DNA of 62,963 bases, filler included, from Limisphaerales bacterium (lineage in GTDB: Bacteria; Verrucomicrobiota; Verrucomicrobiia; Limisphaerales; SIBE01), in assembly GCA_044225505.1 (NCBI GenBank). It is 4 parts of 4 records of this genome, joined end to end, with 100 filler letters (N's around TTAATTAATTAA, not from the genome) between each part and the next. Parts side by side here need not be neighbours in the genome. Positions count along the whole stretch, not along the records: positions 49,586 to 62,963 come from JBGAIN010000200.1; 3 more parts are not named here. The stretch is one strand, 5' to 3'. Shown piece after piece: positions 43,448-61,562 of this stretch (position 1 is the first letter of the stretch; the number at the start of each line of letters is the position of its first letter). Under the pieces are notes generated by a model. That model was not told the DNA's origin. It was given only the letters and a program-made list of their open reading frames with translations, and ran no database searches. The translations under genes were made by a program, and so were the position numbers.

Positions 43448-43712
43448 GTTACCCTCAGGAAACGATTCGAAGCACTCGAAGGAACACTCACGACATCACC
43501 GCCAAGCCAGCCACAATCCCAGAGGCGAGCGATCATTGGCGCAGATTGCATCACACTCAACCTAAGGGTCAACATCCGAAGCCAGCTGACGTGCCGATCA
43601 AGCTTGCTTGCCGCCTAAGCTGCATGTTCATCCCGGGAAATTGCGCGTTGAGAACTGAATGAGCAATCACCCGTCACCCGCTTGACGCCACAGCCGGACG
43701 GAAACCGCGGCG

Positions 43713-44146
43713 TTAGCCCTTAACTCCGCTGCCTTGATCCATCAATGGCCCGTCGTTCTTGGCAATTTCATCTGCTGACACAAACCAGGGAGCATGCTCT
43801 GCCCAATAAATGTTCGCCTGAGGCCTCATCCCTGGATCTGAATCCAATGATCCGCTCGGCACAACCCAGAACTGCCGGTTCCGGCTTAGCTTCGGCAACG
43901 GCGCACCGCAACTCCTGCAAAAGCAACGCGGGAATCCGGGGTTCTCCTTCGTATCGACAAAGAGTTGGGTAAGATCTTCGCCTTGTGTCCATCGAACGGA
44001 ACCTCCAGGAAATGCCAGGTTCGCCGCATGAATAGAGCCACTCGACTTTTGACAGGAACGGCAATGGCAATAGAGAAACTTAATTGGAGCCAGTAACCTC
44101 AAAAGTTACCTTACCACATAAAGCAGGATCCTATAACTGGCTTCAT
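43713..44146 (-). pseudogene. GFA (CENP-V/Mss4-like) family gene with two 5' frameshifts
   Basis: MKPVIGSC / LCGKVTFEVT / APIKFLYCHCRSCQK...RCFCRSCG lie in three successive frames. Confidence 0.75.
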
Positions 44147-44690
44147 AATATTTTGCCGAACGACAATAGCGAACGACAGCCACCGTCCAAGCGGTGGCAC
44201 CCCCTCCCCTCCTGTGATATCCCAGAGGTAGCAAGCAAATTAACCAGCAAGCTTGGTTCCGACGATGCGTTCGCCCTTTTGGTCCTGAGCCGTGTCGTGA
44301 CTCTCGCGCAGAATTTCTACCCTCAGCACGGCGCCCTCCACTCGCAATGACGTCGTCACCTCTCCGCCAGGCCCCAGGCCTCTGACCGATCCATCGAGCC
44401 GTATCAGTTTGCCCACCGTTGGACACCCCGCCTGATTCCTGATCTCAAATTCGTGCCACCGACGAGAGCAACAGAAACAGCTCGTCGCCGTCCAGCCGGT
44501 GCTTGGGATGGAGCGTCGGGCGAGGTTCTGGACTCAGTGCTGCCGATGGGATACGACAGGATGCGCCACACTCAGTAGATTGAGACCAGACCACCCGCCA
44601 GGAACGGAACGCTAACCCCCATGACGATAAGCCGGCGCATGACTATCGTTGTGGTTCTGTTCGTGCCGTAAGGTTTCTTTCCCTGATGCC

Positions 44691-45107
44691 TTAAGCCGAT
44701 TTAGAACAAATCGCCACGGAATTTGCGGCGCCTAGATCAGGGCCGCCGTTTGCTACGTTACCTGGACCGGCTCTTTCGGTTAGCGGAGGACAGTCGCAAC
44801 GGCTGCGGCGTATCCAAGGAATGCAAACCGTCGAGACAAGTGCGAGGACGGCTAAAATGATCGCACCGACGAAGAACCATTCGGAGTTAAGACTCCACTC
44901 CTGATGTCCGTTGATCGTCTTGGATGCGCTCAGGTGAATGAACGATCTTCCCCACAGCCCAATTAATAGCCCACCCCATGACAAAGCGAGAGACGGCGGC
45001 CAGCGTGAGGAACGCAGCCAAAGATTGCGATAGAGAGCCCCTAGAGAAGCCCCGCAACTGAGCAGCCATACTGCCGATGCCACCGCAATCATCGAGCCAA
45101 ATGCCAT
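44691..45107 (-). CDS. Hypothetical membrane protein (3 hydrophobic segments)
   Basis: 138-aa ORF; no family recognised. Confidence 0.45.
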   Translation of the reverse strand: MAFGSMIAVASAVWLLSCGASLGALYRNLWLRSSRWPPSLALSWGGLLIGLWGRSFIHLSASKTINGHQEWSLNSEWFFVGAIILAVLALVSTVCIPWIRRSRCDCPPLTERAGPGNVANGGPDLGAANSVAICSKSA

Positions 45108-45259: not shown

Positions 45260-45485
45260 CCGGATGGTCAAACGAGTCGAACGTGGCCACCCTCAATCAA
45301 TTACGACGGGGAGCGAGAAACTGCCTGTGGGTGTGTGTGCTGACTGAATTCGGGCCGATGAACTGGAAGCGAATGCTGACTTACGTCACGGGATCCGTCG
45401 ACGAAGAGCTCCTCGCCCGAAATGGGTATCTGGTCACGGAGAATCGAATCCTGCGCAACCCGATCCAGTGTCGAATTCGGCTCGC
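45260..45485 (+). mobile_element. Truncated 5' remnant of an IS related to the one at 46263
   Basis: CCGGATGGTCAAACGAGTCGAA matches the left end CCGTAGAGTCAAACCAGTCGAA. ATG at 45358 encodes MNWKRMLTYVTGSVDEELLARN, nearly identical to 46359. Confidence 0.85.
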
Positions 45486-45546
45486 CTGCAAGTCGGCAAT
45501 CGCTGCGTAGGAAGCGGATACTGGCGCCGAATCGCGATTCCCAGCG

Positions 45547-46268: not shown

Positions 46269-47446
46269 AGTCAAACCAGTCGAAAGGCTCCGATCGCAAG
46301 CAGTTACGATGAGAGTCAGCCGTTGCCCGCGGGCACGTGAGCTGGTTGAATTTGGTCTATGAATTGGAAGCGAATGCTTGCATACGTCACGGGTTCCGTT
46401 GACGAAGAGTTGCTGGCCCGCAATGAGTATCTGGTGACTGAAAACCGGATTCTGCGCAATCAGATCCAGGGTCGGATTCGGCTCACTGATCCCGAACGGA
46501 TCAGTCTGGCCCCGACGGCCAAGCAACTTGGGCGCAAAGCGCTAGATGAGGTAGCGCAAATCGTGCGACCGGAAACGATCCTAGGGTGGCACCGCCGGTT
46601 GATCGCCAAGAAGTTCGACGGCTCAAAGAATCGGGCGCCCAAGAAGGGCGGCTCGACGAACGATGAGATTGAGAAACTGATCCTGCAGTTGGCTCGGGAG
46701 AATCGCAGTTGAGGCTATCGGCGGATCGTGTGTGCCCTGGGCAATCTCGGGCACGAAGTCAGTCATCAGACCGTGGCCAATGCTTTGAAACGACACGACA
46801 TCGCGCCCGCACCCGAGCGCGGGCGAACGATGAGTTGGCGTGAATTCATTCGGTCGCATGTGGAAGTCCTGGCCGCAGTGGATTTTTTCACAGTCGAAGT
46901 TTGGACGGCCAGCGGATTGATGACCTTCTACGTGCTATCGTGCATGCGAGTGGCCGCGCGCCAGATATGCATCGCTGGAATCACGACCTCACCGGACCAG
47001 CGCTGGATGGAGCAGATGGCGCGAAACATGAGCTTTGCGGACACCTGTTTTCTCAACGGCTGCCGTTATCTGCTTCATGATCGAGATGCAAAATTCTGTA
47101 ACGCCTTCACCGGGATCCTGGAGGGAGTCGGGATCAAGACGGTGAAATTGCCGGCGCGGAGTCCGAATTTGAATGCCAATTTGGAAAGGTGGCATAGATC
47201 TGTAAAAGAGGAGTGCCTGTCGAAGATGATTTTGTTCGGCGAGGCATCACTGCGACAGGTGTTATCAAATTACGTTCTCCATTTTCATGGTGAACGAAAT
47301 CACCAAGGCAAAGGGAATGCGATTCTCTTTCCCAGACCTGAGGACCGCATCGGTGAATCGACCGGCCAACTCCAGACGCGCGAGCGGCTCGGAGGCTTGT
47401 TGAAATTCTATTACCGCCAAGCCGCATGAGAGTTTTGACCTTACGG
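46263..47446 (+). mobile_element. Insertion sequence with rve/integrase-core transposase
   Basis: Imperfect terminal inverted repeats CCGTAGAGTCAAACC and GTTTTGACCTTACGG (12/15 match) enclose the transposase. No target-site duplication. Confidence 0.85.
46359..47429 (+). pseudogene. rve-domain transposase with a nonsense mutation at 46710-46712
   Basis: ENRS*GYRRI (expected ENxxWGYxRI, so TGG>TGA); AVDFFTVEV, HDRDAKF, NANLERW, ERLGGLLKFY. Confidence 0.88.
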
Positions 47447-47622
47447 GGTCGATCTTCGACCGGCAGGTAAACGAGATCGATGTCCACGGATAGGCGCGGG
47501 AAATTGCGCACGAAGAAATTGATCGCCGTGCCACCCTTGAGCGCAAAGCATGCTTCCGTGCTTACGAACGGGATGACCTGCACCAGCAGGTCGGCCTGCT
47601 TGAAGAAAGAGGTATTTATCAC
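47447..47622 (-). pseudogene. abiEii: AbiEii/AbiGii nucleotidyltransferase toxin, truncated after ~59 codons by the IS
   Basis: FALKGGTAINFF...PRLSVDIDL; toxin-like sequence ends exactly at the IS right end. Confidence 0.88.
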
Positions 47623-48410
47623 GGAGCGTCGTGTGGAGTTGCACTCGCTGCTGGGACGGTGATCAGGTATTTAGGATCGAGCCGACCGCCGGCCACGAAC
47701 ACCCGTTTGCCGCTGCCGAGCGAAACCTTTGTCAGTATTAATTGCTTGAGCCAAGCGTGACCGTGCTTTTCCGCCAGGTGGAGAAAAAGCCGCTTCGCTT
47801 TAACCGAGGTGCATGCCTCAAGGAGCGATTGCACCAAATCCGTCCGCAGCGTTCCGAGTCCCTCGAAGAGAAGATTGGCGTGCTCATATTCGGAATCGGT
47901 GGGCGAGAGATGCTGTATAAATTCGAGCGCTGCACGCTCCGGGGCTGACACGCTCACAACGAGTTCACCCTCGCGATGTTCTCGTAACCCTAGTTCGACG
48001 GGGAGGAAGTTCGTGCTGACATGGCACACGCGATTCGACCACGGCAGGCGTTTGAACCAAGCGGGAAGCCTCTCACCCGTCCGGCTGAAGAGGTAGAGAG
48101 GATACGCCTCGCCTAACGGAACGAAATGCGCGAGGCCTGCGAGTTCCAAAGCCGTGCGCCCGCCCGGATGAAACGACTTCGATCTCTGTTGGAGACCGAA
48201 GACCGCGCCCAGCCATGTTGGGGCGTCTGATTGAACGGCGAAGGCTCCATCACCGACACGGTGCAACCAGCCAGATCTGGCGTAGTAGTCTGCCAGGCGA
48301 CTCGATATGCCTTGGTCCTTAAGCCAGGCGGACGTAAGCACTGCATTGGCGGGTGCAGACATCAGGCGCTGGTTTATTCTTTTGCGCGCTGAACTAGTCT
48401 TGTGGGTCAT
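47619..48410 (-). CDS. abiEi: Type IV toxin-antitoxin antitoxin AbiEi
   Basis: LTSAWLKDQGIS...YARSGWL..VGDG, GGRTALEL, SAPERAALE, LLEACTSVKAKRLFL, LGSGKR; ATGA overlap with the toxin gene. Confidence 0.9.
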   Translation of the reverse strand: MTHKTSSARKRINQRLMSAPANAVLTSAWLKDQGISSRLADYYARSGWLHRVGDGAFAVQSDAPTWLGAVFGLQQRSKSFHPGGRTALELAGLAHFVPLGEAYPLYLFSRTGERLPAWFKRLPWSNRVCHVSTNFLPVELGLREHREGELVVSVSAPERAALEFIQHLSPTDSEYEHANLLFEGLGTLRTDLVQSLLEACTSVKAKRLFLHLAEKHGHAWLKQLILTKVSLGSGKRVFVAGGRLDPKYLITVPAASATPHDAP

Positions 48411-48414
48411 ATCT

Positions 48415-48448
48415 GCTAATAAATAAACCACGAGGTTTGTTTTTTGGC
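48415..48448. promoter_or_regulatory. Inverted repeat upstream of abiEi (candidate autorepression operator)
   Basis: GCTAATAAATAAACC-ACGA-GGTTTGTTTTTTGGC, 12/15 complementary, 4 nt from the start codon. Confidence 0.55.
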
Positions 48449-49585: not shown

Positions 49586-49600
49586 ACGACGAGGTGCCAT

Positions 49601-49696
49601 GCCCAACAAGTCGAGGCAACGAATGAGCGGCGAGAACATCAACTTGGAATTTGAGCAGTGCGAAATGCCGCTCATCGTTGCTCTTCATCGTTAAAC
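49601..49696 (+). repeat. attC site 1
   Basis: R'' GCCCAAC and R' GTTAAAC. Arm GAG(G)CAACGA(A)TGAGCGGC pairs with GCCGCTCATCGTTGCTC, leaving two extrahelical bases. Confidence 0.88.
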
Positions 49697-49701
49697 GATC
49701 G

Positions 49702-50178
49702 ATGGCCGCACTCCACGAATCCTACGTCGCACTACGAATTCACGGGGACTCACTCGATCCTACTGAAATTAGTCGGATTATGGGCTGCTCTCCGACTAAG
49801 GCTTACGTCAAGGGCCAAGTTCAGTACAAAACGAAGCTCTATACGACCGGAGGTTGGCTACTGGACGCGACTGTCCGAGCACCAGGTGATTTCGACGCGC
49901 AGGTTTCGGAGCTTTTCAGCCGAGTGACGAAGGAATTGACCGTATGGTCCAATCTGTCCGGGAAATTCGTCATTGACCTCTTTTGCGGCTTCTTCATGAA
50001 GGAAACCAACGAAGGAATCGAGCTTTCAGCAGAGACGATGCGGATGCTTTCCGAGCGCGGGATCAAAGTGGGCATCTGCCTTTACGCGCCGACGGAGGAC
50101 GTTCAGCCGACTGACTCTTGTCCCTGTAGGAGTGGGAGAGCTTATGCGGACTGTTGTGCTCCGAAACCAGAAGTTTAA
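49702..50178 (+). CDS. Cassette gene: DUF4279 protein with C-terminal SEC-C motif
   Basis: LRIHGDSLDPTEISRIMG..PT, GGWLL, IDLFCG; CPCRSGRAYADCC. The stop lies within R'' of attC2. Confidence 0.85.
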   Translation: MAALHESYVALRIHGDSLDPTEISRIMGCSPTKAYVKGQVQYKTKLYTTGGWLLDATVRAPGDFDAQVSELFSRVTKELTVWSNLSGKFVIDLFCGFFMKETNEGIELSAETMRMLSERGIKVGICLYAPTEDVQPTDSCPCRSGRAYADCCAPKPEV

Positions 50179-50302
50179 CCCACCGCCTGGACGCGAACTG
50201 CTGCTGCGTCAGCAGCATTGCGGCTTGCCGGAAATCCCCGAGAGGATACTGTGACGGCGTGAGCCTCGGTCCAGCGGCAGTCGGTCAGGCGGACCGTTAC
50301 GC
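50173..50302 (+). repeat. attC site 2
   Basis: GTTTAAC ... GTTACGC. Arm CCGCCTG(G)AC(G)CGA(A)CTGCTGCTG pairs with CAGCGGCAGTCGGTCAGGCGG. Confidence 0.85.
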
Positions 50303-50333
50303 CAGAGAAACCTCAGCGCCTTCGAACACTCCT

Positions 50334-50732
50334 ATGGAAGACTCACCGCAGCAGGCCTGTCGATCTTACCGAAGCGTTCTCGGCCTCAAGGTCGCCGTGA
50401 TTGTCGCAATCGCTCTTTCGGCGTGCTCAAGTCCGGTTCAATCCGGCTTGGAGGGCAAATGGAAAGGCGACAACCGGACCGAAACGGTGGAATTTGGCAA
50501 GGATGGGGAAATCCAAGCCGTCGATGGAGCGGGCAACCGTCTGACTGGACATTTCGAGTTCGTAGACAACGACCACGTCCGGTTGCTCATGTCCAGTTCG
50601 TCCCTTGACAAGAAGACCGGAGTTCGTGCGGAGGGCACGATGATCGCCCTCTGCAAATTCGAGGTGCGTGGCGGCACGCTAACCATGACCGACGAAGATG
50701 GATCGACCCACCAGTATAGAAAGGCTCGGTGA
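50334..50732 (+). CDS. Cassette gene: putative lipoprotein, lipocalin-like/DUF5640-like
   Basis: Lipobox LSAC; LEGKWKG...VEFGKDG...GHFEF. Confidence 0.7.
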   Translation: MEDSPQQACRSYRSVLGLKVAVIVAIALSACSSPVQSGLEGKWKGDNRTETVEFGKDGEIQAVDGAGNRLTGHFEFVDNDHVRLLMSSSSLDKKTGVRAEGTMIALCKFEVRGGTLTMTDEDGSTHQYRKAR

Positions 50733-50747
50733 GATTGCATGCTGCTA

Positions 50748-50840
50748 CGGTAACGACCGAATGCATCGATCACCACGAGATGCTGCGACCCAGATGAACG
50801 ATGACGCGGGGTGCGGTGTCGATGATCCGGATCGTCTACG
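50748..50840 (+). repeat. attC site 3 (R' mutated to GTC)
   Basis: CGGTAAC ... GTCTACG. Arm GAAT(G)CATCGA(T)CACC pairs with GGTGTCGATGATCC. Confidence 0.72.
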
Positions 50841-50849
50841 CGTGAATAA

Positions 50850-51156
50850 ATGCCTGTCCTCCGCTGTAAGAGTGTTTGGTTTGGGTCCACCGGAGACGAG
50901 CGGGCATTTTTTGAGTTTGCGAAGGGCATTCAGGCTGTTCGAAAAGTCTACGGGGAGGGCGAGGAGATTCTGCTGCGGGTCGTGTCGCGTCCATCGCAGG
51001 CATCACTCCGCGATCTGATCGCGTTGTTTTTACTAGTATTACATCGAGATGTCTCAGCTGCGACAGTTTTGTAGCCCGAGCAATCGGCAGTGGTTCCACG
51101 ATCCTCAGAAGTTTTGGTTTGAGAAGATCTTCCGAAATGCTACGACATTGGCGTAA
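50850..51156 (+). pseudogene. Cassette gene, hypothetical protein with a frameshift and an in-frame TAG
   Basis: ...SLRDLIALF then, after a +1 shift, Y*YYIEMSQLRQF...FWFEKIFRNATTLA*. This final stop lies in R'' of attC4. Confidence 0.7.
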
Positions 51157-51240
51157 CCACCGCATGCATTGAGCACCGCGAGGAAACCAAACCGGAGATC
51201 GGCCCGGCGGGTGCGGAGTCGATGATGCAGATCGTTGCTC
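51151..51240 (+). repeat. attC site 4
   Basis: GCGTAAC ... GTTGCTC. Arm GCAT(G)CATTGA(G)CACCGC pairs with GCGGAGTCGATGATGC; similar to attC3. Confidence 0.78.
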
Positions 51241-51312
51241 GTCATGGACGCGTTTCTGACGAATGAATGCTTACTTCGACGAATATCAAGTCGGTATAAA
51301 TCTGCTCTGAGT

Positions 51313-51663
51313 ATGATTGCTGATCACGACGCCTATATTGCTGAAGCTCCTAAAGACCTCCGTCCTCTGCTCGTTCGACTGCGCGCTCAACTGGTGCACG
51401 CTCTGCCTGACGCCGAAGAAGTGATCGCCTACAAAATGCCAGGGTTCAAGATAGGAGAATCCATCATCGCCGGTTATGCAGCGTTCAGTAAGCAATGCGG
51501 CCTCTATCTGTCTCCTTCAGCTATCAAGTCGCACGCCGACGACATTGCCGCGGCCGGGCTCAAGTCTACCAAGACCGGCGTCACCTTTTCGCCTAGCCAA
51601 CCCATCCCTGACGGGCTTTTTAAGAAACTCGCCCTAGCTTCTAGAAGGCATCATAAACTCTGA
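51313..51663 (+). CDS. Cassette gene: DUF1801 (YdhG-like) protein
   Basis: HDAYIAEAP...LRAQL...PDAEEVIAYKMPGF...YAAFSKQCGLY...PIP. Confidence 0.88.
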   Translation: MIADHDAYIAEAPKDLRPLLVRLRAQLVHALPDAEEVIAYKMPGFKIGESIIAGYAAFSKQCGLYLSPSAIKSHADDIAAAGLKSTKTGVTFSPSQPIPDGLFKKLALASRRHHKL

Positions 51664-51693
51664 GAGTCCGTTTGAACGCCAATTGCGCGGTTC

Positions 51694-51797
51694 CCACGAA
51701 TGACGCTCGACGAACCAGCGGCACCGATCTCGGCGAGAACTACCCGGTTCCAGATCGAATGCTACGGGTGCCGGGGCAGCGAGCGGCATTGTTCTCC
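51694..51797 (+). repeat. Degenerate attC-like site 5
   Basis: AATGACGCTCG...CGGCACC pairs imperfectly with GGTGCCG...CGAGCGGCATT, followed by GTTCTCC. R'' is not canonical. Confidence 0.5.
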
Positions 51798-51815
51798 AGA
51801 CGCGCACGTTATCCA

Positions 51816-52445
51816 ATGACAACCAGGACCTTTTGCATCGTTGCCGCCCTCTTCCTGTGGACCCCGCTGATCAACTCGCCAGCCGCGGCAGAGTCGTATG
51901 GCATTTTCAAGTCCGACGATGGCGGGCAGGTTTTTGCGTTGGCGGAGGTCGAAGGTGTGTTGTTTGCCGCTCTTTACAATCGAGGGCTTTATGCCTTGGG
52001 CGCGAAAGATCGCTCGTGGTCCAGGATTCGAGGCGTTCAGCCGCTTGTCCTGGCGAACGCTGGCGGCACACTGATTGTAGGACATAATCCCGGCGGCCTG
52101 TATTGGAGTAGGGATTTGGGTATCACTTGGTCGAAGGGAATCGCCACGGTCGATACGCCCAGCCTGCTTGGTGCAACACTTGCAGGGGATAGCGGCGAGC
52201 TTTCAGCCGAAGCCCCCGTTTGGGAAATTGGGTCCAACGGTAGCTTGGTATTTGCCGGTGCCTCGGCAGGGATCTATTACTCAGGCGACTCGGGGCGGCA
52301 CTGGGCTCGCGCGCGTCAAGGGCTTCCAGAAGAAAGTCCAGGCATAGCATTTCTGGTAAAGCGGGAGTTTATTCTCGCAGCGACACCGATCAAGGCGAAG
52401 AACGGCGAACCAGCAGCTGGGCATTCCGGCCATGGCCAGGAGTAA
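51816..52445 (+). CDS. Probable cassette gene: secreted BNR/Asp-box repeat protein (possibly internally deleted)
   Basis: Signal peptide; GIFKSDDGG, LYWSRDLGITW, YYSGDSGRHW. Confidence 0.7.
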   Translation: MTTRTFCIVAALFLWTPLINSPAAAESYGIFKSDDGGQVFALAEVEGVLFAALYNRGLYALGAKDRSWSRIRGVQPLVLANAGGTLIVGHNPGGLYWSRDLGITWSKGIATVDTPSLLGATLAGDSGELSAEAPVWEIGSNGSLVFAGASAGIYYSGDSGRHWARARQGLPEESPGIAFLVKREFILAATPIKAKNGEPAAGHSGHGQE

Positions 52446-52721
52446 AGAACCAGGCAAGGTGTCGGTGATGACGCTGCTGTTGGTGATGCTAAAGCCACTG
52501 TTGAGCGAATGTTGGATTGATGTTTGATGGCGCTGGAGTTCGTCACCGGTCGGGTTGCATGTTTTCCCGTTTCCGCATCTCTATCGGTCAACGAGAGCGA
52601 ACCCTGCCAGACAATTCCGCTGTCCGTCTGATCCCACGCCGCCGTTGACTTGGGCTGATTTTTGTTCGAACGTCACCCATTCGAAATTGATGGTGGGTTG
52701 AAGTGAGTTCCCGAAATCCCT

Positions 52722-53645
52722 ATGCGCTCCGTCAAAACCGCGTGCTCTATCACCCTTGCCTGGGTATTCCTAGGTTGTGTCGCTGCGTTTGCGAAAGATG
52801 CCCGGCCTGTGAGAGTTCTCGTCTGGGATGAACGTCAGCCAGCGCAAAAGCAGGCTTACTCTAACTACTTAGGGAACCAGATCGCCCAGGCATTAGCTCT
52901 GGCGCCTGATCTGCGTGTCCAGTCGGTCGGGTTGGATGACCCTGGCCAAGGTTTGACGACCCTTGACGAGTGCGACGTGTTGGTCTGGTGGGGACATGTC
53001 CGACAGCACGAAATCAGCCCTCAAACCGCGCGCGAGATCGTCTCGCGGATTCGTTCTGGCAAGCTCTCCCTCGTTGTCCTGCATTCTGCCCATTGGTCAC
53101 AGCCTTTTGTCGAAGCCATGCGCGATCGGGCTCGCTCGGATGCCCTCGCTCAAGTTCATCCGGTAGAACGGGCTTCAGTCGTATGGGTGGAGACGAATCT
53201 GTTCCAAAATTTCCGGACGCCGCCCAAGTATGACACGATGCTCTCGCCGTCCGCGATCTATCGCAGGCCGATGGCCGGCCCAGTCACGATCCAGTTGACC
53301 TTGCCGAACTACTGTTTCCCAGCTTATCGCGGGGACGGGAAGCCGAGCCAGATTCGCGTGCTGAAACCGGAACATCCCATCGGCCGCGGCTTGCCCTCGG
53401 CGTTTACCATCGACCAAACGGAAATGTATGACGAACCGTTTCACGTCCCGCCACCCGACGAAGTGATTCTGGAAGAACGTTGGGCCACGGGCGAGTGGTT
53501 TCGCAGTGGCAGTGTTTGGCAACTCGAGAAGGGGCAGATTTTCTATTTCCGACCCGGGCACGAAACCTACCCTGTGTTTAAGAATCCCAACGTGCTAAAG
53601 GTGATCGAGAACGCGGTCCGCTGGCTGGGGCAAGGCGATGATTGA
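52722..53645 (+). CDS. ThuA-like (trehalose utilization) domain protein
   Basis: RVLVWDE, DVLVWWGH, LHSAHWS, EMYDEPF, FYFRPGHETYP. Confidence 0.92.
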   Translation: MRSVKTACSITLAWVFLGCVAAFAKDARPVRVLVWDERQPAQKQAYSNYLGNQIAQALALAPDLRVQSVGLDDPGQGLTTLDECDVLVWWGHVRQHEISPQTAREIVSRIRSGKLSLVVLHSAHWSQPFVEAMRDRARSDALAQVHPVERASVVWVETNLFQNFRTPPKYDTMLSPSAIYRRPMAGPVTIQLTLPNYCFPAYRGDGKPSQIRVLKPEHPIGRGLPSAFTIDQTEMYDEPFHVPPPDEVILEERWATGEWFRSGSVWQLEKGQIFYFRPGHETYPVFKNPNVLKVIENAVRWLGQGDD

Positions 53646-55609
53646 AGAACGGAATTCCAGTCGAAGGGAGCGAGGCAGTGCGGTCGGCCCGGAAGAGATT
53701 CCGATCTTCGCGCCGGCGGTACTCCAACTTCCGGGAGGACTATCGGGAACGTCAGTTCGAGGATGAGTCCGGCGGAGAGCAGAGCCCCGCAACCAAGGAT
53801 GGGGCGAAGGGACCACGCACGACTCTGGGAGGGAAGCGGCGGGAATACCTGCGTGAATATCTGCGGTGGCTCTGGCCGTATCGTTTCCCGATCGGCGCGC
53901 TCTTCCTCTTGGCACTGTTCGTGGCTGGACTGGAGATGGTGGAGCCGCTTTTCATGCGCTACATCATTGATCAAGTGCTGCTGAATCCGCGATTGGATGC
54001 GGCGGCGCGGTTACCGAGACTACATTGGGCGGGGGGATTGTTCGTTGGGATTGTCATCCTTTCCAAGCTGATCGCGGTGCTCAAGGACTATCGCCAGCGA
54101 TTGGTCAACGTGCGGGTCATGTTGTCGTTGCGTAGGTTTCTCTACGATCGACTGCTTCATCTGCCGTTGCCAAGGCTCTGGGACATGAAAACCGGTGGCA
54201 TCCTCTCGCGTTTAACCGGGGACGTGGACACCACGACGGGACTGCTGCAAATGGCGCTCATCTCTCCGGCGGTCTCGGTGGTGCGGTTAATCATCGCCAT
54301 CGGTGTGCTGCTTAGCCTGAACTGGCGGCTCGCGTTGACGGCGTTGGCCATCATTCCGGGCGTCATGCTCGCCAGTTTCGCGTTTGCCCGCCGCATCCGC
54401 CCGATCTATCGCTCCGTGCGCAAAGATGTGGAGCAGATCGATGGACGAGTGGGGGAGACCTTTTCCGGGATTCGGGTCGTGCGCGCTTTTGGCCGGGAAA
54501 CTCGCGAGTCCTTCGAGTACATGCTCGGCCGGCACACGGTGTTGCGGAAAGAACTGTTTGCGCATCGCCGCGAGTTGGTGGTGTGGACATCGTGGGGGTT
54601 GCTGCTCGGTGCCGTCAATGTGGTGATCGTCTGGTATGGTGGCTACTTGAATATCATGGGGGGCGCATCGATTGGCGATATCATGGCCTTTCAATGGTAC
54701 ACCTTCCTGCTCCTGAATCCGGTCTGGCAGATCGTCAATTCCTTCTCCGAGCTGCAACGGTCTCTCGCGGCCATGGAACGCGTGTTCGAAGTGTTGGCTA
54801 TGGACGCCGACAAGCCCGACCGCCCGGAGGCGCGCGAAGCCCCTGCGACCGTCGAAGAAATCCGCTTTGAGAAGGTTGAGTTCGAGTATCGCGAAGGGCA
54901 ACCCGTGGTGAAGGACTTTTCGGTGGTGGTCCCGGGAGGGACGGTGGTCGCTTTGGTCGGACGCAGTGGCGCGGGCAAGACGACGGTGACGGATCTGGTA
55001 GCGCGTTTCCACGATCCAACGCGAGGCCAAATCCTCCTGAATGGGGTGGACATCCGCGACTTCCGCTTGAGCACCTACCGCGACCTGTTAGCACTTGTGC
55101 AGCAAGATGTCTTTCTCTTCGACGGGTCCGTTCGCGATAATATTGCTTACGGACGGCACACGGCTTCCGATGCCGAGATCGAAGATGCGGCCCGGCGGGC
55201 GAACGCCCACGAGTTCATCGCCAAGCTTCCGCAACAGTATGAGACGTTTATCGGGGAACGGGGGGTGAAGCTTTCCGGCGGTCAATGCCAGCGCCTGGCG
55301 ATTGCGCGTGCGATCCTGGCTTCACCGCAGATCCTGATTCTGGACGAGGCAACGAGCAACCTGGACACGGAGAGCGAGCAACTGATCCAAGCGTCCATGG
55401 CCACGCTGCTGGCAGGGCGAACGACGTTTGTCATCGCCCATCGGCTTTCCACGATCCGTCGCGCCCATTTGATTCTCCTAATGGAGAATGGCCGAGTGAC
55501 CGAACGCGGCACCCATGAGCAGTTGATGAATGCGCGAGGAACGTACTACGAAATGGTCCGGCGCCAGATGGCTTCTCACCATTCGCCCGAAGACGAACTT
55601 TGGCGATGA
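53642..55609 (+). CDS. ABC exporter, fused permease/ATP-binding subunit
   Basis: TM domain, GRSGAGKTT, LSGGQCQR, ILILDEATS, IAHRLST. Start uncertain. Confidence 0.95.
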   Translation: MKNGIPVEGSEAVRSARKRFRSSRRRYSNFREDYRERQFEDESGGEQSPATKDGAKGPRTTLGGKRREYLREYLRWLWPYRFPIGALFLLALFVAGLEMVEPLFMRYIIDQVLLNPRLDAAARLPRLHWAGGLFVGIVILSKLIAVLKDYRQRLVNVRVMLSLRRFLYDRLLHLPLPRLWDMKTGGILSRLTGDVDTTTGLLQMALISPAVSVVRLIIAIGVLLSLNWRLALTALAIIPGVMLASFAFARRIRPIYRSVRKDVEQIDGRVGETFSGIRVVRAFGRETRESFEYMLGRHTVLRKELFAHRRELVVWTSWGLLLGAVNVVIVWYGGYLNIMGGASIGDIMAFQWYTFLLLNPVWQIVNSFSELQRSLAAMERVFEVLAMDADKPDRPEAREAPATVEEIRFEKVEFEYREGQPVVKDFSVVVPGGTVVALVGRSGAGKTTVTDLVARFHDPTRGQILLNGVDIRDFRLSTYRDLLALVQQDVFLFDGSVRDNIAYGRHTASDAEIEDAARRANAHEFIAKLPQQYETFIGERGVKLSGGQCQRLAIARAILASPQILILDEATSNLDTESEQLIQASMATLLAGRTTFVIAHRLSTIRRAHLILLMENGRVTERGTHEQLMNARGTYYEMVRRQMASHHSPEDELWR

Positions 55610-55667
55610 CGTACGGTCGCGCCCGGGCTAGAGTGCGCCTGCCAGAAAACCCAATCGTAAACGACAC

Positions 55668-58600
55668 GTGATGTTGAATCGTGGTATTCCATTGGGCCTC
55701 TTTTGCCGAGGTCGTATATTCGGGGCGTGGCGGTCTGCAAAAGGCCCGCGGCAGCGGCCGCTGCAAATCAACCCGTTACGCGTGTTTGAGGTCTTGGCTG
55801 GGTGTTTTGTCTCTAGGCCCGCTCCGGAAAATGCAGTTGGCAGACTGGCGCTCCGTGCCCCGTGGCATCGGGCCACGATCGCGGGGACGCGAATAGCGCT
55901 CGTGCTGGCTGCTCTCTTGGTGCGACGCCACGCCGCGGATCTGGCGGGTGAGTTCAGTCGCGAGATCCGCCCGCTCGTCCAAAACTACTGTTTGGGTTGC
56001 CACTCCACCGAAAAGCACAAGGGCGATCTCGACTTGGAGAGATTTGGCACCATGGCGGACGTGTTGAAAACACCCAAGCCCTGGCAGCAAGCAATCGAGC
56101 AACTGTCCTTGGGGGAAATGCCGCCTAAGGGAAAGCCGTCGCCCACGCCGGCTGAACGCGAACAACTATTTCGCTGGATCAATGAGTCGCTCGACCAGGC
56201 TGCCCTGGCGCGGGAGGGTGACCCCGGCCCAGTCCCGCTCCGCCGCTTAAACAACGCTGAGTATACCTATACCCTCCGCGATTTGACTGGGGTGGTTTCC
56301 CTGGATCCAGCCAAGGAGTTTCCTGCGGACAGCGCTGCTGGGGAAGGCTTCATGAATACTGGAGGGTCCCTGGTAATGTCTCCGGCATTGCTCTCCAAGT
56401 ATCTGGATGCAGGCAAGGAAATCGCCAGCCACGCTGTTCTGGTGTCCGACGGGTTCCGCTTCTCGAGCAAGACGAGCCGCCGTGATTGGACCGAGGAGTT
56501 GGTGACCGAGATCCGCGAGTTTTACCGACGGTTTACGGACGCCCGCGGCGCTGAGAAGGTGAACTTGCAGGGCATTGTTTTTGATACGAATGCGGGTGGG
56601 CGGTTGCCTGTGGAAGCTTACTTACGTGCGACGTTGGAATGGCGCGCTTTGATCGAACAAGCCCAAAAGAGCTCGCGCCAGGGCGGGCCCGTAGGGGAAG
56701 AATCCACGGCGCGCGGGGCGGCCGTCGGGGCGTCGGTGGCCCGGGGATTGCACGCTTTCGCGGTGGAGCGCGGGCTGAGCGGCAAGTATCTTGAGTCCCT
56801 ATGGGAGTTGCTGCATCGCGAGGATGGGTCCCTCGTCGTCGATGCGATTCGGGCGTCATGGCGGCAAGCGCAGCCAGAGGACGCCGCCGAGTTGGCAACC
56901 GCGGTGGGCCGATGGCAAAAGGCGCTTTGGAAGTTTTCGAGTGTGGGGCACATCGGCAAGCTCAACGGCCCCAAAGCTTGGATGGAGCCGGTCAGTCCTT
57001 TGGCGGAAACGCAAGAGTTTCGTCTGAAGTTGGTCGCGCCGACCAACGATCCGATCATCCGCGTGTTCCTTCAGGCCCGGGACGGAGGCGATGGCAACAC
57101 CAACGACGTCGTCCTCTGGCAGCGGCCGCGGTTGGTGGTGCCAGGGCGACCGGACCTGCTGCTGCGCGATACGCGGAAGTTTATTGAGGAAGCTCTGGAC
57201 CGGCGCGAACGTGTGTTTGCGGCGGTGGCCAGATGTTTAGAGATCGCCGCGAGCGCCGCAGCTTCGACGAATGAGATTGACCTGGTGAAACTGGCGGGAC
57301 AGCACAACGCCGATGCCGACGCGTTAGCGGCTTGGTTCGGTTACTTGGGAATTGGGGGAGGCACCGCTGCACGATTGGATTATTTCACGAATCGAATTGC
57401 GAGTGCGTCTGGCTATACATTCATCCAAGGGTGGGGGAGCGCGGATACCCCGAGCATTATGGCCAACGCCTCGGACCAGGAGGTGCGTATTCCCGGGAAA
57501 ATGAAACCGCACGCCGTCGCGGTCCATCCTTCCCCCAAACTGAATGTTGGAATTGGGTGGCGCAGTCCTGGGACGGCAGTGGTTCGCCTGGAAGGCGCTG
57601 TGACTCATGCGCATCCTGAGTGCGGGAACGGTGTGGAGTGGACCTTGGAACTGCGTCGTGGGCAGACCAGGCAAGTGTTAGCTAAAGGCGTCGCCCAGGG
57701 GGGACAACCCGTTCGATTCCGGGCCTCGAACGACGTCGGCGTGCAGAATGGCGATTTGATCTCCGTCTTGGTGGGGGCCCGCGATGGAAACCATTCGTGC
57801 GATCTGACGGATATCGAATGGACCATTCAAGAGGTCCGCGAGGGAGGCCAACGCTGGGCTTTGGCGGACGTAAGCCGCGACCTTCCTGCGGCCAATCCAC
57901 ATCCTGACAACGATGGTCGCGAAGGGATCTGGCACTTTTACACGGAAGCGGTCTCGGGAACCGGCGCGGGCGCAATTATTCCGGCTGGCTCGCTCCTGGC
58001 CCGTTGGCAGTGCGCAGCTAACCCACAAAGCAGGGGGGCGTTAGCCAGCGCGATTGGAGATCTGCTCAAAACGCCTCCGCCAGCGACCGAGCAAAGTGCA
58101 GACGCAGCGCTTTATCGGCAACTGGCGTCTTTGTCCGGGCCGCTCTTTGCCCATAGCGTTCGAGGAGATGTCAAATTATCGGAGGCTCGGAAACAGGCGC
58201 GAAACGCTGCCCGCTCGACGGACGATCAAGAAACAGCGTGGGGAATGGATCCAAGTGATTTTGGTAAAGATCCGGAAGGGAAGGCGAGCGTCGATGACGC
58301 CGACTTGTGCGTGCGTGCCCCGGCGGTGTCGGAGATCCGTTTGCCTGCTGACTTGGTCTCGGGGGCGGAATTGGTAGTGACGGGCTGCTTGCACCCGCAA
58401 TCCGGAAGGGAGGGCAGTGTTCAGTTACAGGTCGCCCGGGTCAAACCAACCGAGAGCGCCGGACTTGTGGCCGGTGTCACCGAGGTGAACCGAATGGGAG
58501 GCATGTGGACTTCGGACGATCGCCGAATCTCGCACAGCTCCCCGATTCTCGTTAAGCCTGGAAGCTCGGCCCAGGCACGCTTGGAAGCGGGTTTCGACGT

Positions 58601-60173
58601 GTTTCGGCGTTGGTTTCCGGCTGCCCTATGCTACGAGAAGATCGTTCCGGTTGATGAAGTGATTACCCTCACACTTTTTCATCGAGAGGATGAACCGCTC
58701 TGCCGCTTGATGCTGGGAGATGCCGAAACCGCCCGATTGAACAAGCTTTGGGACGACTTACGATATATCAGCCGTGACGCCATCACGTTGGTCGACGCGT
58801 TTGAACAGCTTTGGCAGTACGCCACCCAGGACGCGGATCCGAAAGTGTTCGAACCATTGCGCCAGCCCATTCGAGATCGCGCGGCGGCCCTGCAGAAGCG
58901 GTTGGTGGACACGCAACCCGAGCATCTCCGAGCGCTCCTGGAATTCGCGGGGCAGGCCTACCGGCGCCCATTAACCGATCGGGAAACGAAAGAATTGCGA
59001 GATTTGTATCACAGGCTTCGCTCCGAGGAGATCCCGCACGACGAAGCGTTCCGCCTGACGCTGGCCCGAATTTTCGTCGCTCCCTCCTTTTTGTATCGGT
59101 TAGAAAGCGCCCCGCAGGGCAAAGAGGCCCGCCCGGTGTCGGATGCGGAATTGGCCACTCGGTTGAGTTACTTTCTCTGGTCCTCCATGCCTGACGCGGA
59201 GTTGCGGAATCTGGCAGAAGCCCGGCGTCTGCACGAGCCGGACGTGCTGGCGGCGCAAGCCAAGCGGATGATGAGCGATGGGAGAACCCGCCGATGGGCC
59301 GTCGAGTTTGGGAGTGCCTGGCTGCATTTGTACGACTTCAAAGATTTGAACGAGAAGAGCGAGCGGCATTTCCCAACGTTTGGGGAGATGCGAGATCCGA
59401 TGTTCGAGGAGGTAATCCAGTATCTGACAGACTTCGCCCAACACGACGGGTCCATTCTCACACTGTTCGATTCCGACCACAGTTTTCTCAATGAATCGCT
59501 GGCAAAGTACTACGGCGTTCCAGACGTTTCGGGTGCGACCTGGCGACGAGTCGATGGGGTCAAAAAATTGGGGCGAGGCGGCGTTCTGGGGTTCGGCGCG
59601 ACGCTAGCAAAACAATCCGGTGCGTCGCGGACGAGCCCAATTCTGCGAGGCAATTGGGTGGCCGAAGTTCTCCTGGGCGACAAGTTGCCCAGACCGCCGA
59701 AAGATGTGCCACGGTTGCCGGAAGATGAAGCGACCGAGACGCTGACCGTTCGACAGTTGGTGGAAAAACACAGTAGCGATCCCCGATGCGCTTCGTGCCA
59801 TCAACGCATTGACGGGTTCGGGTTTGCCCTGGAAGGGTACGATGCGATCGGGCGGGTGCGGACCAAAGATTTGGCCGATCGGCCGATTGATGCTCGGTCG
59901 CAGGTCTTTGACGGAACGGCGGTCAATGGAGCCAGCGGCTTGCGCGAATACCTATTGACCAAGAAGCGCGATGTGGTGGTCCAACAGTTTTGCCGCAAGC
60001 TGCTCGGATACGCCTTGGGGCGGAGCGTGATTCTTTCCGATAAGCCTTTGCTTGCGGAAATGCAAAATGCGCTGCGAGCGAACGATTACCGGATCAGCGT
60101 CGCGGTCGATGCCATCGTGCGGAGCCGCCAATTTCGCGAGATCCGCGGTGCAGACCTGGCCGATGAAGGATAA
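55668..60173 (+). CDS. DUF1592/DUF1588/DUF1587 planctomycete-type cytochrome c protein
   Basis: CLGCH and CASCH heme motifs, LRRLNNAEY, ELATRLSYFLWSSMPD, RTSPILRG. True start probably further downstream. Confidence 0.9.
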   Translation: MMLNRGIPLGLFCRGRIFGAWRSAKGPRQRPLQINPLRVFEVLAGCFVSRPAPENAVGRLALRAPWHRATIAGTRIALVLAALLVRRHAADLAGEFSREIRPLVQNYCLGCHSTEKHKGDLDLERFGTMADVLKTPKPWQQAIEQLSLGEMPPKGKPSPTPAEREQLFRWINESLDQAALAREGDPGPVPLRRLNNAEYTYTLRDLTGVVSLDPAKEFPADSAAGEGFMNTGGSLVMSPALLSKYLDAGKEIASHAVLVSDGFRFSSKTSRRDWTEELVTEIREFYRRFTDARGAEKVNLQGIVFDTNAGGRLPVEAYLRATLEWRALIEQAQKSSRQGGPVGEESTARGAAVGASVARGLHAFAVERGLSGKYLESLWELLHREDGSLVVDAIRASWRQAQPEDAAELATAVGRWQKALWKFSSVGHIGKLNGPKAWMEPVSPLAETQEFRLKLVAPTNDPIIRVFLQARDGGDGNTNDVVLWQRPRLVVPGRPDLLLRDTRKFIEEALDRRERVFAAVARCLEIAASAAASTNEIDLVKLAGQHNADADALAAWFGYLGIGGGTAARLDYFTNRIASASGYTFIQGWGSADTPSIMANASDQEVRIPGKMKPHAVAVHPSPKLNVGIGWRSPGTAVVRLEGAVTHAHPECGNGVEWTLELRRGQTRQVLAKGVAQGGQPVRFRASNDVGVQNGDLISVLVGARDGNHSCDLTDIEWTIQEVREGGQRWALADVSRDLPAANPHPDNDGREGIWHFYTEAVSGTGAGAIIPAGSLLARWQCAANPQSRGALASAIGDLLKTPPPATEQSADAALYRQLASLSGPLFAHSVRGDVKLSEARKQARNAARSTDDQETAWGMDPSDFGKDPEGKASVDDADLCVRAPAVSEIRLPADLVSGAELVVTGCLHPQSGREGSVQLQVARVKPTESAGLVAGVTEVNRMGGMWTSDDRRISHSSPILVKPGSSAQARLEAGFDVFRRWFPAALCYEKIVPVDEVITLTLFHREDEPLCRLMLGDAETARLNKLWDDLRYISRDAITLVDAFEQLWQYATQDADPKVFEPLRQPIRDRAAALQKRLVDTQPEHLRALLEFAGQAYRRPLTDRETKELRDLYHRLRSEEIPHDEAFRLTLARIFVAPSFLYRLESAPQGKEARPVSDAELATRLSYFLWSSMPDAELRNLAEARRLHEPDVLAAQAKRMMSDGRTRRWAVEFGSAWLHLYDFKDLNEKSERHFPTFGEMRDPMFEEVIQYLTDFAQHDGSILTLFDSDHSFLNESLAKYYGVPDVSGATWRRVDGVKKLGRGGVLGFGATLAKQSGASRTSPILRGNWVAEVLLGDKLPRPPKDVPRLPEDEATETLTVRQLVEKHSSDPRCASCHQRIDGFGFALEGYDAIGRVRTKDLADRPIDARSQVFDGTAVNGASGLREYLLTKKRDVVVQQFCRKLLGYALGRSVILSDKPLLAEMQNALRANDYRISVAVDAIVRSRQFREIRGADLADEG

Positions 60174-60188
60174 ACAGACCTATTGCCT

Positions 60189-61493
60189 ATGAACAAACAC
60201 TTGTTCTCTCGCCGTGCCTTTTTGCGCGGCATCGGTGTGACCATGGCTTTGCCTTGGATGGAATCGCTGCCCGTATGGGGCGATACACCAGCGCAAGCCT
60301 CGGGCGCGAGCGAAGCGCCGGTGCGGTTAGGCGTTCTCTTTTCCGGCAACGGATTTCACAGCAAGGAATGGTGGGCGAAAGGAGAGGGCGCTTCCATGGA
60401 ATTGGGCAAAGTGCTGGCCCCTCTGGCGGACGCTCGGCGCAAGATGCTGTTCATTCGGGGCCTCTACAACGACGAAGCGCTCAAGGGCAATATCCACAGT
60501 TCGCAAACGGGTAATTTGCTTTCCGGCGCGCCGCTTGCCTCGGGCGGGGAAATTCGATCGGGCACGAGTATCGACCAACTTCTGGCGCAACGGTACGGGC
60601 GATCGACGAAGGTTTCGAGCTTGGTGTTGGGATGTGAACGATCCAATCCGTCGGTGCACAAGAATTACTCGATGCTCTACAGTTCTCATATCTCCTGGAG
60701 TTCGCCGACCACTCCCACGCCGCTTGAAGTGTATCCTGCCTTGGCGTTCGACCGATTGTTCAAAGACGAGGTGAGCCGCGGAGATCGAAGTGTGCTCGAT
60801 GCGGTCATGGCGGACGCCAAAGATCTGCGGCCCCGAATCTGTGCTAACGACCAACGGAAGCTTGATGAATATCTGGACTCGGTTCGAGAGGTGGAGGTGC
60901 GCATCGAACGGGCGGGCCAAAAGGGCGAACTTCAAGGGTGGCGGCCGACGTTGACGACGCCGAATATGCCGCGTCCGGCGGATGGGATACCGCAGGATAT
61001 CGCCGAACACATGCGGCTGATGTGCGACATTATGATTTTAGGGTTTCAAACCGACACGACCCGGATCGCGACGCTCAAGCTGAATAACGACCATAGCTCA
61101 CTTCGTTTTCCCAATTTGGGGGTGGATTACATGATTCACCATCTGTTGTCGCATAGCGACAGCGCCGATTGGCTGAAGGTGAATCAGTTTTTTGTCGAGC
61201 AGGTGGCCTACATCGCGAGGCGCTTGGATGCCATTCAGGAAGGCGATCGAACACTTCTGGACAATTCCATGCTGCTGTTTTGTTCGAGCATGCTGAATGG
61301 CAATCACGACGCCACGCAGTTGCCGGTGATCGTGCTGGGGGGCGGTGGAGGCAAAATTCAGGGTGGGCGCGTTCTTGATTACAAAGAGAAGGCCGAACGC
61401 CAAATGTGCCGCTTGTACCTGTCTTTGATGGACAAAGTTGGCGTTCGGTTGCCGAAGTTCGGTGATGCTTCCGAGCCGCTCGCTGAGGTTTAG
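60189..61493 (+). CDS. DUF1552 protein (Tat signal), usual partner of DUF1592
   Basis: SRRAFLRGIGVTMALPWMESL, SIDQ, KLDEYLDSVREVE, TLLDNS. Confidence 0.92.
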   Translation: MNKHLFSRRAFLRGIGVTMALPWMESLPVWGDTPAQASGASEAPVRLGVLFSGNGFHSKEWWAKGEGASMELGKVLAPLADARRKMLFIRGLYNDEALKGNIHSSQTGNLLSGAPLASGGEIRSGTSIDQLLAQRYGRSTKVSSLVLGCERSNPSVHKNYSMLYSSHISWSSPTTPTPLEVYPALAFDRLFKDEVSRGDRSVLDAVMADAKDLRPRICANDQRKLDEYLDSVREVEVRIERAGQKGELQGWRPTLTTPNMPRPADGIPQDIAEHMRLMCDIMILGFQTDTTRIATLKLNNDHSSLRFPNLGVDYMIHHLLSHSDSADWLKVNQFFVEQVAYIARRLDAIQEGDRTLLDNSMLLFCSSMLNGNHDATQLPVIVLGGGGGKIQGGRVLDYKEKAERQMCRLYLSLMDKVGVRLPKFGDASEPLAEV

Positions 61494-61511
61494 CGAGAAG
61501 GGAGCCGAAAG

Positions 61512-61534
61512 GTCCCGGGCGCTTCGCCCGGGAC
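61512..61534. terminator. GC hairpin between convergent genes
   Basis: GTCCCGGGCG-CTT-CGCCCGGGAC; no strong U-tract. Confidence 0.5.
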
Positions 61535-61562
61535 GGTTCGGGTTCAGTTTGGTTGCTGGGCC

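Follow-up and report, generated by a model that had tools for sequence, protein, structure and literature searches.

The window analysed here is a 62,963-nt stretch of DNA from the metagenome-assembled genome (MAG) of a Limisphaerales bacterium (GCA_044225505.1), made up of four contigs joined by N spacers; positions 49586-62963 are contig C314 (13,378 nt, JBGAIN010000200.1). The left end of this contig carries an array of integron gene cassettes, a cassette being defined as an open reading frame (ORF) together with the attC site that closes it downstream. The region is confirmed as a genuine attC cassette array: the five co-oriented attC sites proposed in a preliminary description of this DNA are recovered by a covariance model trained on 34 sites from outside the window, the grammar matches to sites 1-4 stand out against shuffled sequence, and a sixth, heavily decayed site is added to that list. 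The contig edge lies 15 nt before the first site, as reported earlier, and on the right the array gives way to chromosomal genes, the first of which encodes a ThuA-like protein (52722..53645, plus strand), with an ABC transporter next. Because C314 begins with the array, which then passes into chromosomal genes, the part preserved here is the old, distal end of an integron cassette array. The kind of array is known, integrons and attC-site clusters without integron-integrases (CALINs) having already been published for Verrucomicrobiota.

The MAG comprises 9.04 Mb in 342 contigs and is 95.21% complete and 4.71% contaminated. The probable verrucomicrobial host suggested beforehand is borne out by RecA, for which 7 of the 120 best relatives carry an organism name and 6 of these 7 are Verrucomicrobiota or Verrucomicrobiae, and by the ThuA-like gene beside the array, whose best relatives are mostly Verrucomicrobiota MAGs (60-67% identity).

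Detection and structure of the attC sites

A hand-written attC grammar, with thresholds chosen with the window sites in view, recovers sites 1-4, all on the plus strand (site 1 with a grammar score of 15.5), and fails on site 5. Among 1000 dinucleotide shuffles of 49586-52600, 971 gave no grammar match, 29 gave one, and none gave two or more in the same orientation. The covariance model, denoted R1, was trained on 34 grammar-found attC sites from other contigs, the C216 copy identical to site 1 being excluded. It assigns 61.0, 38.4, 26.8, 39.2 and 25.5 bits to sites 1 to 5, respectively, all with E <= 3.3e-4, and the top background score in the 63-kb window, apart from the reverse strand of site 1, is 12.1 bits. 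A control on 380,625 nt from the surroundings of ThuA homologues, namely 32 loci picked as verrucomicrobial out of the 77 available, gave no R1 match at E <= 0.01 (default filters). All 16 L-stem pairs of the training alignment vary on both sides, and 96.2% of the cells pair; this covariation is partly circular because the training sites had been selected for pairing. An Rfam scan returned four weak, unrelated matches, none relevant to attC. Unconstrained folding, a poor discriminator of these sites, was dropped as a sole test. Five sites reach 25 bits or more, enough for the cluster part of the CALIN definition.

The cores lie at 49690, 50296, 50834, 51234 and 51791, with spacings of 606, 538, 400 and 557 nt that agree with the earlier estimate of about 400-610 bp. 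The AAC of R'' and the GTT of R' are intact in sites 1, 2, 4, 5 and 6; the AAC/GTT cores originally described for sites 1-4 stand, except that the GTC assigned to site 3 is really a GTT with a C inserted. Pairing of L'' with L', extrahelical bases on the R'' arm and a central spacer of 5-6 nt are present in sites 1-4 and broken in sites 5 and 6; the unpaired bases noted on one arm of sites 1-4 are found by the grammar and R1 alike. Each ORF had been described as preceded by an imperfect palindrome: the co-orientation of the sites holds, every attC goes with the ORF that lies upstream, and unconstrained folding sets only sites 1 and 2 apart from shuffles. Sites 1, 2, 4 and 5 have relatives of 71-87% identity elsewhere in the genome, and R1 finds matches in 27 of 30 related genomes, including all 12 within the family. 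From these two observations, the sites are taken to form one lineage-wide pool with several length classes, and the mixed origins once proposed for them were overstated. The sites of the window are members of an order-wide attC family.

The folded bottom strand of attC is bound by the integron integrase (IntI) via the extrahelical bases and cut within the AAC of R' (PMC5027507). Across the 34 genome sites, the extrahelical base at the L box is C in 26, and the outer base is T in 20 and C in 13. The available portion of PMC3053210 reports excision of T-N6-C and A-N6-C sites by several IntIs, including IntI1, and mentions no C-N6-C site. Sites 1 and 3 thus match working patterns, although the core of site 3 is damaged.

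Cassettes of the array

All features below lie on the plus strand. The contig opens within the 3' end of the ORF of a cassette that we call X (49586..49626, TGA at 49624-49626), which runs into attC1 (49601..49696, 96 nt, crossover G/TT at 49690). Because an attC closes the preceding ORF, attC1 ends cassette X, most of which is off the contig; the full copy on contig C216 has an ORF at 880-1800 with no Pfam match. The boxes of attC1 are GCCCAAC (R''), GAGGCAAC (L''), GTTGCTC (L') and GTTAAAC (R'), and its bottom-strand extrahelical bases are T-N6-C.

Cassette 1 (ORF 49702..50178, 158 aa) encodes a DUF4279 protein (Pfam E 3.2e-19) with a C-terminal SEC-C motif (E 3.2e-6), and its stop lies within R'' of attC2 (50173..50302, 130-nt class, crossover 50296), a site with three extrahelical bases. 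Cassette 2 (ORF 50334..50732, 132 aa) encodes a probable lipoprotein, with an LSAC lipobox recognised by eye and a weak lipocalin/META-like similarity (below the Pfam cut-off; atlas lead 0.90-0.91). It is closed by attC3 (50748..50841, 94 nt), with extrahelical bases A-N6-C and, in the R1 alignment, a 1-nt insertion in the R' core that reads GT-C-T at 50834-50837; the cassette 3 homologue at locus L149 begins GTTACGC. Cassette 3 (50850..51156), one of the five short ORFs first listed, is a pseudogene. It carries an extra T near 51027, absent from the metagenome runs X7 and X10 described below, and a stop at 51034-51036, and its original stop falls within R'' of attC4. Intact relatives are hypothetical proteins of 96-101 aa, with one longer and one open-ended entry also matched. 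A 61-aa relative, whose contig equals one X10 record in length and may not be independent of it, ends at the same internal TAG; given this shared codon, the internal stop of cassette 3 probably predates its frameshift. The two stop codons placed inside R'' boxes in the preliminary description are indeed there, as TAA in sites 2 and 4.

Next come attC4 (51151..51240, 90 nt, crossover 51234, extrahelical bases C-N6-C) and cassette 4 (ORF 51262..51663), which encodes a DUF1801 protein (Pfam E 1.1e-9) and, to judge from the homologue at L133 (85% DNA identity), probably starts at ATG 51313. Its site, attC5 (51709..51797, 89 nt), is degenerate, as first thought, four of its pairs being broken and a gap of 3 nt lying near the spacer/L''. 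Cassette 5 (ORF 51816..52445, 209 aa) encodes a secreted protein with BNR/Asp-box repeats that has lost about 135 internal aa in frame, residues 36-198 aligning to residues 208-370 of the 384-residue frame at L135, and runs into attC6 (52404..52506), the heavily decayed final site. Alone, the 9.9 bits of attC6 are within noise; it is identified as the remnant of the cassette 5 site because DNA homology with L135 extends to 52413, into the 41.4-bit attC of the L135 cassette. In all, three of the six sites (3, 5 and 6) and two of the five ORFs (3 and 5) are damaged, and the damage rises toward the right end. Sigma-70-like promoters number 0 in the array, with 1.5 expected, and PADLOC gave no convincing defence match for six cassette proteins (best E 0.007).

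Changed neighbours, array heads and the integrase

C314 opens with 107 nt that recur without a difference at C216:1760-1866; directly past the GTT of site 1 the sequences diverge, C216 continuing into an addiction-module cassette. Contigs from four of 24 listed metagenome runs (X1, X2, X7 and X10; one per study, four studies) were aligned to the locus, X1 being possibly the source of the genome and hence not independent; RNA runs, with only 6-7% of the sequence words, were left aside, and gaps in contig cover carry no weight in what follows. In X1, a 988-nt contig (depth 9.93) ends at 49692 and equals C216:879-1866 in length, and a second contig (depth 5.83) covers 49663-53395, which fits the presence of cassette X in two contexts. 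In X2, the sequence that follows on C216 is found behind 49692 as a loose end. For both X7 and X10, the match to cassette 1 starts at 49689, preceded by 381 and 219 unlike nt, respectively, and the X10 contig becomes unlike again past 50283, 12 nt before the crossover. The match to cassette 2 starts at 50296 in X7, where an attC4-like site precedes it, and at 50295 in X10. The ThuA side of the array is joined by contigs covering the same 49663-53395 in X1 and 51577-53434 in X7, and three X7 contigs, about 99% identical, span the stretch from cassette 2 to ThuA except for 18 nt within site 4. These comparisons show a left end that varies at the crossover base and a right end that looks fixed. 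As a separate observation, where cassette X starts, a scaffold join on C216 (L018:865-878) has the same 140 nt on both sides (725-864 and 879-1018) and points to a second fork, 12 nt within that cassette.

Homologues elsewhere extend this picture. The cassette 3 homologue at L149 (85% DNA identity) is bounded by two attC sites between different cassettes, and the nearest cassette 5 homologue, at L135, lies within an array in another family of the same order. Among 250 genomes of the order, cassettes 1, 4 and 5 are found in 0, 1 and 13, respectively, cassette 1 being absent at E <= 1e-15; an exact 23-nt probe of the cassette 2 start has no match in JGI metagenome contigs. Cassettes X, 1, 2, 3 and 5 have other neighbours elsewhere. 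The same genes in conserved order without palindromes in relatives had been named as evidence that would speak against an array; none of the homologue loci keeps the gene order of the window, and this objection therefore fails.

No intI gene or remnant occurs on C314, which begins 15 nt before site 1. Both intI and more cassettes had been considered possible on another contig, and both occur on other contigs. R1 at >=25 bits, applied to the window and 31 hand-picked loci (about 190 kb, including the 34 training sites), yields at least 79 distinct attC sites on 24 contigs of the genome. The sole intact intI is on contig C60 (69282-70256), with an attI-like crossover at 70294. Its product scores 267.6 bits against TIGR02249 (cut-off 265), has all six catalytic residues (R141, K166, H270, R273, H296 and Y305) and aligns unbroken to VchIntIA across the IntI-specific insertion. 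In place of His240-His241 of VchIntIA, it has Trp244-Arg245, each residue being present in 117 of 120 clade members; among relatives' integrases in which the motif was located, 8 of 9 have His-His. The order holds two IntI clades, a canonical one with RRHH and a divergent one with VRWR(C/L/M)HE (residues 236-248), and both integrases of this genome are of the latter type. On C60:64385-72350, a tandem is seen in which a truncated intI, an attI-like site and eight cassette sites are followed by the intact intI, which adjoins a near-identical attI-like site and further cassettes; the intI start codon and the crossover are 38 nt apart. Among the 30 related genomes, 12 have a TIGR02249 match at E <= 1e-40, and both same-genus genomes (completeness 63% and 96%) carry attC sites but lack a match of this strength (0/2).

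A profile of 119 homologues revealed a split intI on C311 and a truncated one at C60:64385; C330 keeps a fragment of the C terminus, and C292 and C293 show weak traces. A 5' intI remnant is present on C162. Eight array heads fall into three BLAST families (C60a/C60b/C162; C311/C292/C152; C330/C273), and we infer that they are attI-like because of the GTT at the first cassette and the resemblance to the region 5' of intI or its remnants. C114 and C209, initially taken as heads, have no homology to the others and were removed from the count; in C222, C339 and C293 the motif is recognised only by eye, and these too stand outside the count. The tyrosine recombinases beside attC on C201 and C122 were rejected as IntI, scoring under the TIGR02249 cut-off, and an IS91-type transposase follows the one on C201. 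The two are parts of related IS91-like elements (C201:1100-3398 and C122:45411-47713; tyrosine recombinase plus transposase) that have the same end base directly before attC R'' and mimic the position of intI. The two lexA genes of the genome (L151, L152) have different upstream palindromes that are unlike the attI-like motif, and no LexA box is therefore claimed.

A 340-nt cassette consisting of both ends of a TIGR02436 four-helix-bundle gene occupies the first position at C273 and C311, and a shorter variant is first at C162 and C60b; copies also lie inside the C60 array, and several arrays of the genome share a 91-97% identical cassette. This cassette has hexamer repeats and is found on C60, C162, C273, C311, C114, C209 and C221, with a full-length parent on C99. 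At C209:7443 and C114:21054, it sits at a chromosomal GTT with no attI-like head, possibly through secondary-site insertion, and on C209 it is directly upstream of a divergent gene that we take to resemble mnmA.

About eight arrays run off contig ends (C60a, C273, C292, C293, C221, C339, C168 and C72), and C314 could therefore continue any of them; a search of contig ends for an overlapping partner of C314 matched only C216.

Interpretation and comparison with known systems

The C314 array, certainly a distal end, is best explained as the tail of a chromosomal integron array and is probably a CALIN whose head has lost intI; the choice offered in the preliminary description, between a CALIN and the distal part of an integron, is upheld. 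Each cassette consists of one promoterless ORF and its downstream attC, whose folded bottom strand would be recombined by an integron integrase at G/TT, as indicated here by the positions at which neighbours change. New cassettes would enter at an attI that lies beyond the left contig edge, and older ones would be pushed rightward, lose expression and decay. The head was most likely an attI-like platform that lost its intI, leaving a CALIN that may be served in trans by the C60 IntI or an incoming one; that only one of the roughly eight open heads has an intact intI supports this. Excision of a cassette is semi-conservative and can duplicate it (PMC8024014), and cassette X may have reached its second array, on C216, by such copy-and-paste excision and re-insertion.

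An alternative is that the array is the distal end of the complete C60 integron, split from it by the assembly. The array on C60 leaves its contig in the same orientation, and the most variable array is expected beside a working integrase, the left end of C314 being variable. Nevertheless, C60 is one among about eight open heads, no contig-end overlap joins it with C314 or C216, and synteny lends no support to a C60-C314 link, which makes this origin unlikely. We regard as quite improbable the possibility that the array is a fossil, formerly built by IntI and no longer recombining, in which the differences among runs would reflect old divergence, species that share cassettes or mixing of strains in the MAG. 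The damage to half of the sites and two of the ORFs agrees with that possibility, as do the order cassette 2-3-4-5-ThuA, which contigs that adjoin or overlap span in X1, X2 and X7, the lack of an intI match in both same-genus genomes and the unusual Ser236 of the single IntI. However, cassette X shows 0 differences in the 107 shared nt, and the unbroken 988-nt contig leads to both of its downstream neighbours; only 3-10 nt separate cassettes 1 and 2 from the copies that have other neighbours; and the 91-97% identity of one cassette across several arrays of the genome likewise speaks against a fossil. That chance palindromes, terminators or repetitive extragenic palindromic (REP)-like repeats between ordinary genes could account for the sites is barely conceivable: four of the six fold no better than shuffles when unconstrained, but the R1 scores, L-stem covariation, shuffles and ThuA-locus control all contradict such an origin, neighbours change at the GTT, and the same type of site flanks the genes directly behind intI on C60.

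Several observations weigh against the array being the tail of a chromosomal integron likely to be a CALIN. The contamination of the MAG stands at 4.71%. The C60 IntI only just exceeds the TIGR02249 cut-off, and its Ser236, at a position where 105 of 120 clade members have Pro, leaves its activity uncertain. The head of the array lies outside the assembled sequence, and comparison of the neighbours of the 77 ThuA loci gave only scattered paralogue-level matches and paired no head with C314. The contigs of the runs represent whole communities, so that some possibly belong to other organisms and depth is not copy number. No R1 match of >=30 bits is present at 13 of the 14 cassette 5 homologue loci or at the sole cassette 4 homologue locus. 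Under unconstrained folding, sites 1 and 2 have z of about -2 relative to shuffles and the others -0.5 to +1.1. Finally, the attC bottom strand tends to fold more stably than the top strand (PMC5027507), and here it is the stabler in only two of the six sites (unconstrained DNA minimum free energy; differences of 0.5-3.3 kcal/mol).

A broader interpretation, which we offer tentatively and on balance doubt, is that the array is one arm of a multi-platform integron. Such an integron would have at least eight attI-like heads at separate chromosomal loci, seven of which lack an intact intI; one integrase, of the divergent (Trp-Arg) clade, would load them all in trans, and the gutted four-helix-bundle cassette, first at four of the eight heads, would spread in a parasite-like manner.

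The CALIN is defined by Cury et al. 2016 (PMC4889954), who count Verrucomicrobia among the clades with integrons, consider arrays that rearrangement has split or that an IntI located elsewhere serves, and report intI pseudogenes near only 15 of 279 CALINs; Verrucomicrobiota are also listed with integrons in PMC8618304. Most integrons in MAGs appear as CALINs, one MAG having up to 107 attC sites on more than 18 contigs (PMC9668308). The array shares with CALINs as described by Cury et al. at least two co-oriented attC sites, a contig without intI, an IntI elsewhere and mostly unknown genes. By contrast, several intI-less arrays in this genome keep an attI-like head, some of them with intI remnants, and the 4-10 kb upstream stretch that enters the definition lies beyond the edge of C314.

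As in sedentary chromosomal integrons such as the Vibrio cholerae super-integron, the sites have the R''-L''-L'-R' arrangement, 5-6 nt spacers and an R'' arm with two or three extrahelical bases, and the cassettes encode toxin-antitoxin and hypothetical proteins. The best PDB match of the C60 IntI is 2A3V (VchIntIA; E 8.8e-49), and equivalents of K209, Y210 and W219 are kept. The differences are that many short arrays replace one long array, that a single repeat gives way to attC sites 59, about 90 or about 126 nt long, that in 26 of 34 sites the extrahelical base at the L box is C instead of G, and that the His-His of VchIntIA that holds the other extrahelical base is Trp-Arg in the clade of the C60 IntI (117/120 for each residue). 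Xanthomonas, as described in bioRxiv 10.1101/2025.06.18.660453, likewise has decaying integrases and arrays, among them CALINs, at several chromosomal loci, for which mobilisation in trans is proposed; there, intI is found at one locus, ilvD, whereas here attI-like heads of at least three sequence families lie at separate loci, several of them with intI remnants. A weak literature search, covering mostly journals outside subscription, returned neither a report from Verrucomicrobiota of numerous attI-headed arrays with a single integrase nor one on the Trp-Arg IntI clade.

Ordinary in itself as an attC array, the locus is of value as a clean natural example in which related populations differ in their cassette neighbours from the crossover base on and decay grows along the array. 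If orphan attI heads do capture cassettes via one distant integrase, many seemingly inert CALINs of Verrucomicrobiota would be working insertion platforms, which would bear on the origin and persistence of CALINs. The Trp-Arg IntI clade and the C-type extrahelical bases are ready substrates for studying how integrases read attC structure.

Elsewhere in the window, contig C290 carries, on the minus strand at 43600-45107, a probable second and more decayed cassette remnant. An attC-like site at 44275-44155 (11.9 bits, not significant) precedes an ORF of the GFA family (44102-43713), a further attC-like start lies near 43720, and the ORF 45107-44691 has an attC-like read-through tail, to which R1 gave no match. 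The region 46359-48431 contains a Type IV toxin-antitoxin pair, AbiEi (48431-47619) and AbiEii (47622-47134), of which AbiEii is apparently interrupted by an insertion sequence (IS)-like integrase-core gene (46359-47429), a 5' piece of the same IS being present near 45283-45510.

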